64,000 nucleotides of DNA from Escherichia phage WPEC3: the sequence record PV611058, one strand, 5' to 3'. The position numbers and the translations under genes are program-made. Below, piece by piece: positions 9,516-9,844 of the stretch; the first letter of the stretch is position 1, and each line of letters starts with the position of its first letter. The notes below the pieces were generated by a model. The model had not been told where the DNA came from and ran no database searches. It worked only from the letters and a program-made list of their open reading frames with translations.

Positions 9516-9844
9516 TATTTTAACCTCATTATAAAAATACTATAGTACTGTAATGCTACAATAATACTACTAGTGTTTATCTTATTCAAACCATATGATA
9601 CTACATATCCACCAGCATTACCACGGATAGTAACGCCTTTGTACTGTCTATATAAATTCAACTGCGTATATTGCCTTTGATCAAGAATTGATCAGAATTA
9701 TACGCCTTATGCTAAATTGATCCAGTACTTTTTTGATCATTTATTGATCGATATTATATAGTTACATTTGTGCACCCTATGGGTTAGTGACGTTCTCGTC
9801 TTGATGTAAGTATTATGCCAGTACTGGAGGATATTGTCAATAGA

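Follow-up and report, generated by a model that had tools for sequence, protein, structure and literature searches.

Five TTGATC repeats form a structured array in the DNA of Escherichia phage WPEC3 (sequence record PV611058), an Asteriusvirus jumbo coliphage related to 121Q and PBECO4. Unless another genome is named, coordinates refer to the 64-kb stretch of this DNA that was analysed (64,000 nucleotides; hereafter the window). The array consists of two repeat units, each holding a pair of GATC sites one helical turn (11 bp) apart, which flank a fifth GATC. It overlaps P2, a predicted weak internal promoter downstream of the early promoter P1. Taken broadly, the array is probably a control site, either read through methylation or bound by a protein. 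More specifically, it might be a cis-regulatory operator of P2 whose state is read by way of Dam methylation or of SeqA-type binding, a reading that we put forward tentatively, as a possibility that falls short of probable. The working unit of such an operator is, we infer, the one-turn GATC pair.

Composition of the array

The five heptamers all lie on the plus strand: TTGATCA at 9677 and 9688, TTGATCC at 9717, TTGATCA at 9733, and TTGATCG at 9744. Their GATC sites start at 9679, 9690, 9719, 9735, and 9746, with successive spacings of 11, 29, 16, and 11 bp. The five TTGATC(N) repeats giving five GATC sites that the original prediction described are thereby reproduced in exact sequence and position. 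A direct-repeat search groups four of them into two units:

9677 to 9749, plus strand: GATC array, five TTGATC and with them five GATC, read directly from the sequence
9676 to 9702, plus strand: repeat unit B, TTTGATCAAGAATTGATCAGAATTATA, from the direct-repeat search; confined to the 121Q-type cassette (described below)
9732 to 9758, plus strand: repeat unit A, TTTGATCATTTATTGATCGATATTATA, from the direct-repeat search; its GATC pair at 9735 and 9746 is invariant across cassette types

Units A and B are 27 nucleotides long, 78% identical, and 56 bp apart. On the plus strand the unit reads TTTGATCA-N3-ATTGATC-N3-ATTATA; on the minus strand it reads as TATAAT followed by two GATCAA motifs 11 bp apart, and in unit B this TATAAT is the -10 hexamer of P2. 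The fifth GATC (9719-9722) lies between the units, within the -35 hexamer of P2. The repeated motif thus exceeds GATC itself, extending to WTTGATCA and to the 27-nucleotide unit.

GATC is not enriched in the window overall (152 sites, versus 163 expected from shuffled sequences), and the window maximum is the five sites in 72 bp of the array. Of 1000 simulated 64-kb sequences (first-order Markov), 3 matched this maximum. Five TTGATC motifs on the same strand occurred in none of the 1000, the highest simulated count being three. Since the simulations rarely or never match the array, we regard the cluster as real and not a product of chance.

Variation of the cassette among relatives

The array is carried by a segment that is present in some Asteriusvirus genomes and missing from others:

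9514 to 9853, no strand assigned: indel cassette of 330 bp, bounded by the 10-bp direct repeat ATTATTTTAA and absent from phAPEC6 and G17

The two copies of the direct repeat are at 9514-9523 and 9844-9853. In phAPEC6 and G17 the intervening 330 bp are missing, and the stop codon of gp292 overlaps the start of the dksA-like gene. We compared eight haplotypes of the cassette, which fall into three types:

121Q-type: six haplotypes from phage records, the window included; five GATC
PBECO4-type: from phage records; four GATC
Recombinant type: two metagenome contigs; three GATC

When IMG/VR was scanned with the pattern of P2, it matched 121Q alone, and a scan of metagenomes matched two contigs, those of the recombinant type. 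The GATC sites at 9719, 9735, and 9746 are invariant in all three types, and the pair at 9735 and 9746 is always 11 bp apart. Unit B, with the two left-hand GATC sites, is specific to the 121Q-type. The PBECO4-type has an extra TTGATCA of its own, created by five clustered substitutions that leave the length unchanged. The extra GATC sites of the 121Q-type and of the PBECO4-type were gained independently. No polymorphism among the eight haplotypes touches a GATC core, and the cores are the best-conserved part across cassette types.

Promoters and the transcribed leader

Three elements on the minus strand describe the transcriptional setting of the array:

9812 to 9840, minus strand: promoter P1, TTGACA-17-TGgCATAAT, a consensus early sigma-70 promoter (11 of 12 positions, with TG)
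9757 to 9805, minus strand: conserved leader with core CCCATAGGGTGC, transcribed from P1; nine copies in the terminal repeat
9697 to 9724, minus strand: predicted promoter P2, TGGATC-16-TATAAT, from homology to paralogous modules and from conserved islands

P1 immediately follows the stop codon of the gp292-like gene, with TTGACA at 9840-9835 and TGgCATAAT ending at 9812. P2 lies about 115 bp downstream of P1, and the array spans about +56 to +127 of P1.

The -35 hexamer of P2 is TGGATC at 9724-9719 (3/6 consensus positions), followed by a 16-nucleotide spacer and the -10 hexamer TATAAT at 9702-9697 (6/6), and an A6 UP-like tract lies just upstream of the -35. The arrangement AAAAAGTAC-TGGATC-N16-TATAAT aligns with AAAAAGTAC-TTGCA(A/T)-N16-TATAAT, which is the second promoter of five paralogous P1-leader-P2 modules in the same terminal repeat, and P2 is predicted because of this homology. 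In the PBECO4-type the corresponding sequence is TTGATC-16-TATAAT, with a -35 that matches 4/6 positions, or 10/12 overall. The -10 and -35 hexamers of P2 and the ribosome-binding site are conserved islands in about 100 bp that have otherwise diverged by about 50% between two cassette types. P2 thus has the features expected of a sigma-70 promoter, with -10 and -35 hexamers at a spacing within 16 to 18 nucleotides that are kept in relatives. We found no Asteriusvirus transcriptome in the literature that we searched.

With the predicted P2 start at 9690 as +1, the GATC sites occupy -59/-56, -48/-45, -32/-29, -3/+1, and +9/+12. The first two fall in the A/T-rich UP-like region and the third in the -35 hexamer. 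A candidate promoter on the plus strand, TTGATC-18-TATAGT (9733-9762, 9/12 positions), also uses part of the array, and its -10 is reduced to TACAGT in PBECO4 and TH47. We found no terminator-like site between P1 and the DksA-like gene.

The leader is one copy of an element of about 50 nucleotides (core CCCAYMGGGTGC) that occurs on the minus strand at 1428, 4178, 7449, 9783, 11992, and 19309 and on the plus strand at 16830, 19241, and 21394. All nine copies are within the terminal repeat. The element trails a subset of early promoters, and several of these modules add a second promoter, which makes them the P1-leader-P2 modules mentioned above. No Rfam family matched the whole window at the gathering threshold or the interval 9450-9900, leader included, at E<=5.

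Because TGATCA is palindromic, tandem copies in RNA can fold into hairpins (GAUCA-AUAAA-UGAUC and UGAUCAA-UUC-UUGAUCA), and such hairpins within the long leader made from P1 might modulate how stable the mRNA for gp293 and the DksA-like protein is, or how well it is translated, as the G-rich 5' stem-loops of nearby early transcripts may do. Both hairpins are present in the predicted fold, the second nested in a GCGUAUA/UAUACGC stem beside the ribosome-binding site, and nearby early promoters are followed by G-rich 5' stem-loops. However, the P1 leader folds little better than its shuffled versions (z = -1.7; 12 of 200 shuffles fold equally well), 121Q has a weaker outer stem, and unit B is missing from the PBECO4-type and the recombinant type. 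Moreover, the P2 transcript would begin within the 5' arm, Rfam offers no match, and the GATC pair of a second locus (described below) has a variable spacer and does not require a hairpin. We consider it very improbable that the array acts as an RNA element.

Composite terminator-hairpin/promoter motifs (AAAAAGGGATTGACTCCGGTCAGTCCCTTTGCTATTAT) occur on the minus strand at about 7499, 4233, 1478, and 12047. Their -35 hexamer, TTGACT, is within the 5' arm of a G+C-rich hairpin, and they closely resemble the PeSL motifs known from T4-type phages. Elsewhere, two consensus promoters converge from 19184 (plus strand) and 19363 (minus strand), about 180 bp apart; the conserved leader follows each of them, and the interval holds no gene.

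GATC sites genome-wide and a second locus

Genome-wide statistics rest on one complete relative genome, TH47 (352,450 bp), which is colinear with the window at 81-99% identity over the aligned parts. TH47 contains 581 GATC sites versus 1068-1243 expected (observed/expected about 0.5; 1.65 per kb), and in 20-kb bins the ratio is mostly 0.27-0.55. Counter-selection of GATC has long been known in enterobacteriophages (McClelland 1984; Deschavanne and Radman 1991; as cited in PMC5014478), and the deficit in TH47 is consistent with it. The array is the sole place in TH47 with at least four GATC in 72 bp or at least three same-strand TTGATC in 80 bp. Its density is about 40 times the TH47 genome average, so that the condition under which the original prediction would have been refuted, a GATC density no different from the genome average, does not hold.

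Adjacent GATC sites exactly 11 bp apart occur six times in TH47, versus about one expected. Of 10 pairs at 10-12 bp, four or five are in the roughly 9% of the genome that lies outside open reading frames (ORFs; those of at least 70 amino acids were counted), so that one-turn pairs are enriched there. One such pair is a second locus, an intergenic TTGATC-N5-TTGATC at 26415-26431 of TH47, outside the window. It is located between a terminator and a TAAATA late-promoter-like motif, and is flanked by genes of phrog_16190 and phrog_11171. The GATC cores and the 11-bp spacing are kept in 121Q (TCGATCAAAAAATGATC) and phAPEC6 (TTGATCATATTTTGATC), whereas the spacer and flanks vary among TH47, 121Q, and phAPEC6. 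Retention of cores and spacing while spacer and flanks change is the best evidence that the one-turn pair, and not the heptamer, is the selected unit.

This distinction bears on another possible operator, one that is independent of methylation. A sequence-specific protein, an early or middle regulator of the phage or a host factor, could bind TTGATCA-N4-TTGATC in tandem or as a dimer and, from sites to either side of P2 and in its -35, repress or activate the promoter, in which case the GATC sites would be incidental. The repeat does reach beyond GATC, to WTTGATCA and the 27-nucleotide units, and the consensus TTGATCAA forms an 8-bp palindrome, as is typical for sites of dimeric binders. In TH47 the full bipartite motif is present three times, always in non-coding DNA, versus about 0.01-0.03 expected (an estimate from base composition), and the PBECO4-type made a complete new TTGATCA and not merely a GATC. 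Yet where the motif decays, the GATC core and the 11-bp spacing stay and the TT flank is lost, as at the second locus of 121Q (TCGATCA...ATGATC) and at site 4 of the PBECO4-type (AGATC). Also, no known E. coli factor fits, scans for OxyR, IHF, FNR, CRP, and DnaA remain at background, and no candidate for the binding protein emerged. Such a protein is a rather unlikely explanation of the array.

Several other sequence words and sites deserve mention. The second-densest GATC group of the window comprises four sites in 86 bp at 17471-17556, directly upstream of a minus-strand promoter, TGGACA-16-TATAAT, whose -35 starts at 17468. This promoter belongs to the same AAGGCGTATAAT subtype as P2 and is probably inside the upstream coding region. 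At 53495-53509 of TH47, outside the window, a 42-bp intergenic spacer contains an 11-bp GATC pair that overlaps both a ribosome-binding site and a start codon (GATCAAGGATAGATCATG). In TH47, GGATCC occurs once and CGATCG never. GCGC is absent both from the window (54 expected from shuffles) and from TH47 (about 330 expected), which looks like total avoidance of the HhaI-type site. Conversely, AGTACT (and CAGTACTG) occurs 291 times in the window versus about 22 expected, and 917 times in TH47 (7.7 times expected). Many early promoters have it in their spacers (cAGTACTGTATAAT), and it stands immediately upstream of P2-type -35 hexamers, but also far from promoters.

Position within the terminal repeat

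Over a 2-kb stretch around the array, identity is 99.7% to Escherichia phage Ecwhy_1 and 99.6% to fEgEco12. The annotation of vB_Ec-M-J places the region inside a 21,525-bp direct terminal repeat, and the terminal repeat of fEgEco12 is 20,993 bp, as determined by PhageTerm and confirmed by restriction mapping (PMC13070987). The array corresponds to 11,245-11,317 of the fEgEco12 record, in the middle of the terminal repeat and about 11.2-11.3 kb inside it. The part of the window that belongs to the repeat contains dozens of small early genes on the minus strand, most with their own near-consensus sigma-70 promoter. The observed/expected ratio of GATC is 0.97-1.7 in the terminal repeat (341-21865), compared with 0.5 in 21866-64000. 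The record of EC.P1 (PQ657772) ends inside the array, and we considered whether this is a physical terminus; it is an artefact, a duplicated overlap of about 127 bp in a circularised assembly.

Another explanation is that the array has no function as a cluster and is a by-product of duplication and gene conversion in a hyper-plastic cassette. Unit A would have been copied onto the start region of P2, a small slippage event would have occurred in the PBECO4-type, and the GATC sites would be tolerated because the terminal repeat escapes GATC avoidance. The 78% identity of the two units and the higher GATC ratio of the terminal repeat are in keeping with this account. So are the dispensability of the cassette, the lack of significant conservation of the cores within it, and the construction of the region from recombining promoter modules, which resemble the PeSL cassettes of T4-type phages (PMC2839356, PMC4122927). 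However, even at the density of the terminal repeat, five GATC in 72 bp have a p of about 0.03 and five oriented TTGATC a p of about 1e-6 (Poisson estimates). In addition, two lineages independently added copies of the same motif, and an unrelated intergenic region, the second locus, keeps a one-turn pair under apparent constraint. On balance, we think it unlikely that the array is a by-product alone.

A possible methylation-read operator on P2

GATC clusters read by SeqA or Dam are expected to be dense, to have close sites on one helical face, and, in vivo, to be methylated at adenine and to pass through a hemimethylated state that SeqA binds. By the sequence criteria among these, the array is a candidate member: it packs five GATC into 72 bp, versus 1.65 per kb in TH47, and has two GATC pairs spaced at exactly 11 bp. 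E. coli, the host, has both Dam and SeqA. Regions bound by SeqA in vivo favour GATC sites about 10 or about 20 bp apart, and less than 50 bp (PMC2912659), and SeqA is described as stimulating lambda pR through downstream GATC sites (Lyzen 2006, as cited in PMC2777414). The likening of the cluster to Dam- or SeqA-regulated elements in the original prediction is partly supported; the setting is a promoter/operator of a dispensable cassette, and not an origin-like sequestration site.

Asteriusvirus phages might also methylate GATC themselves. TH47 encodes a 174-amino-acid N6-adenine methyltransferase of the PF05869 "Dam" family (115 bits; the gene is outside the window), and the Asteriusvirus Sharanji is reported to encode a Dam-family methyltransferase (PMC11895373). 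We assume that the Asteriusvirus PF05869 enzyme is specific for GATC. In two related jumbo phages, Nanopore sequencing detected N6-methyladenine at GATC in virion DNA (PMC11780129).

Under the proposed mechanism, the state of the GATC pairs would be set by adenine methylation, by host Dam, the PF05869 Dam-family enzyme of the phage, or both. Injected DNA would be fully methylated, P1 and P2 would fire, and gp293 and the DksA-like factor would be expressed. Replication would then yield hemimethylated pairs that could be bound by a reader of such pairs, for which host SeqA is the known candidate. Binding would occlude P2, or otherwise change its initiation in either direction, and might also hinder read-through from P1. 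Through either effect, expression of the DksA-like factor would be coupled to the state of replication.

A broader and more speculative form of this idea, which we think distinctly unlikely, is that one-turn GATC pairs are an epigenetic replication sensor of Asteriusvirus. Such pairs would be written by the Dam-family enzyme of the phage, read by SeqA or a phage protein, and used to tell injected genomes from replicated ones and so to time specific genes (here that of a DksA/TraR-like modulator of host RNA polymerase, and at the second locus a late-type promoter). GATC would have been removed from other parts of the genome to keep the signal specific.

A number of observations weigh against a methylation-read operator on P2. 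Viable relatives exist without the cassette, which makes any role an accessory one. Taken alone, conservation of the GATC cores within this segment is not significant (p of about 0.03-0.3, a hand estimate), and the right-hand part is almost the same in every cassette type in any case. Units A and B are copies of each other, so that the five sites cannot be counted as independent. The T-tract that separates the -35 GATC from the upstream pair has five or six T, so that phasing is not strict. The start and activity of P2 are predictions, and its -35 hexamer in the window matches consensus at three of six positions. The non-random flanks of the sites (TTGATCA) are not accounted for by SeqA or Dam, and the longer repeat unit fits a sequence-specific protein or a local duplication equally well. 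Finally, a Dam enzyme of the phage itself might make hemimethylation very short-lived.

Similarities to known systems

Dam-dependent promoter switches and SeqA-read GATC clusters appear to be the nearest functional analogues of the array. Like the Dam/OxyR switches P22 gtr, agn43, opvAB, and Mu mom, it has paired GATC sites across a promoter, with one in or next to the -35. In phage P22 gtr these are at -110, -97, -46, and -33 (PMC2909390), and the pairs of the switches are thus 13 bp apart, unlike the 11 bp of the array. We scanned 9640-9790 for consensus sites of OxyR, IHF, FNR, CRP, and Fis and 9500-9900 for DnaA, and none was above background in these intervals; Fis-like 7/x matches are trivial for GATC-N7-GATC. 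Tandem OxyR half-sites (ATAGnTnnnAnCTAT) were not found either, the best single half-sites matching 8/10 and 7/10 positions, 56 bp apart and at background frequency, which places the array outside the OxyR-dependent class. Moreover, the phage is lytic, and heritable phase variation of the kind that those switches provide has no obvious place in it.

SeqA clusters such as oriC and bacteriophage P1 oriR are dense, with adjacent GATC sites about one turn and less than 50 bp apart, as in the array. Unlike them, the array is not at an origin, is dispensable, and has conserved flanking bases, which SeqA does not need. A location downstream of a strong early promoter, here P1, is also found at lambda pR (as cited in PMC2777414).

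The pac site of bacteriophage P1 contains seven TGATC(A/G) hexamers in 161 bp and is Dam-regulated (PMC10028697). The array likewise repeats TGATC(A/G), each with a Dam site, and four of its five copies fit the hexamer. This resemblance, together with a density like that of the GATC arrays of origins such as oriC and P1 oriR, raises the possibility of a replication or packaging site, an origin-type cluster or pac-like hexamers read by terminase. However, in pac, groups of four and three hexamers flank a cleavage region with an IHF site, whereas the array has five copies in 72 bp and no IHF consensus match of at least 8/9. The Asteriusvirus phage has long direct terminal repeats, and does not package by the headful from a pac site. 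The array is about 11 kb from the mapped ends (about 11.3 kb inside the 20,993-bp repeat of fEgEco12; PMC13070987), and the end of the EC.P1 record within it is the assembly overlap of 127 bp. The best candidate for a DnaA box, a single site outside the array, agrees with TTWTNCACA at 7/8 specified positions; apart from the two units there are no iterons, and the GC content is ordinary with no change of skew. Lastly, the cassette is missing from the viable phages phAPEC6 and G17, and this dispensability means that the array can have no essential part in replication or packaging. We regard an origin or a pac site as highly improbable, and rejected both on the grounds of dispensability and position.

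Promoters with GATC in core elements include IS10 pIN, dnaA P2, and cre of bacteriophage P1, with one or two sites each. The array is similar to these in having a GATC inside the -35 of P2 and another at its predicted start, and differs in having five ordered sites within repeat units.

The cassette as a whole is reminiscent of the PeSL cassettes of T4-type phages, which are mobile units of promoter and ORF (PMC2839356, PMC4122927). In both cases the early region is hyper-plastic and a small ORF comes and goes together with its own early promoter, and modules that neighbour the cassette carry composite terminator-hairpin/promoter motifs. In contrast, the GATC array has no counterpart in the described PeSLs, and a 10-bp direct repeat, in place of two PeSLs, marks the ends of the indel.

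Genes of the cassette and its borders

Three genes, all on the minus strand, surround or overlap the array-containing segment:

9845 to 10042, minus strand: upstream gene, similar to 121Q gp292, phrog_36844, from annotation and homology
9515 to 9661, minus strand: ORF of 48 amino acids, similar to 121Q gp293, phrog_38664, with a TTG start; annotated in 121Q, PBECO4, and fEgEco12
9258 to 9515, minus strand: DksA/TraR-type C4 zinc-finger gene (PF01258, 1.8e-9; phrog_54), the downstream cargo of P1 and P2

The original prediction placed the array in a 300-bp intergenic gap. The gap between annotated genes is indeed 329 bp (9516-9844), but it is partly coding, as the conserved 48-amino-acid ORF occupies 9515-9661, which leaves about 183 bp (9662-9844) as truly non-coding. 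This ORF keeps its length and shows conservative substitutions between two versions whose DNA is just ~55% identical. Its product is a diverged paralog of small proteins of the terminal repeat, with which it has the motif G-YVVSYG in common, and a search for gp293 homologues in a set of 5.8 billion proteins returned a single cluster. The stop codon of the ORF overlaps the ATG of the DksA/TraR-like gene (TAATG).

Homologues of the DksA/TraR-like protein with 62-73% identity are present on contigs of about 144-178 kb that look T4-like and have no GATC cluster upstream of the gene, and the protein seems to be common to jumbo and T4-type phages. Among relatives in IMG/VR, the more distant ones (64-73% amino acid identity, T4-like contigs of about 170 kb included) have another upstream context with no GATC cluster. 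Because the upstream context differs in such distant relatives, the depth of comparison is limited to Asteriusvirus.

Significance

The timing of gene expression in jumbo phages of the RaK2/121Q type is almost unstudied, and we found no mention of control by GATC or methylation in the genome papers that we consulted. Natural comparisons are available between phages with the cassette (fEgEco12, 121Q, and PBECO4) and those without it (phAPEC6 and G17). If the array is merely a by-product of duplication, it amounts to little more than a curiosity within a hyper-plastic promoter region. If instead it is an operator read through methylation, it would explain why a GATC-avoiding phage with its own Dam-family enzyme has a few precisely spaced GATC pairs. 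An early-promoter operator would then link genome replication to the expression of host-takeover functions, via a DksA/TraR-like factor of RNA polymerase.

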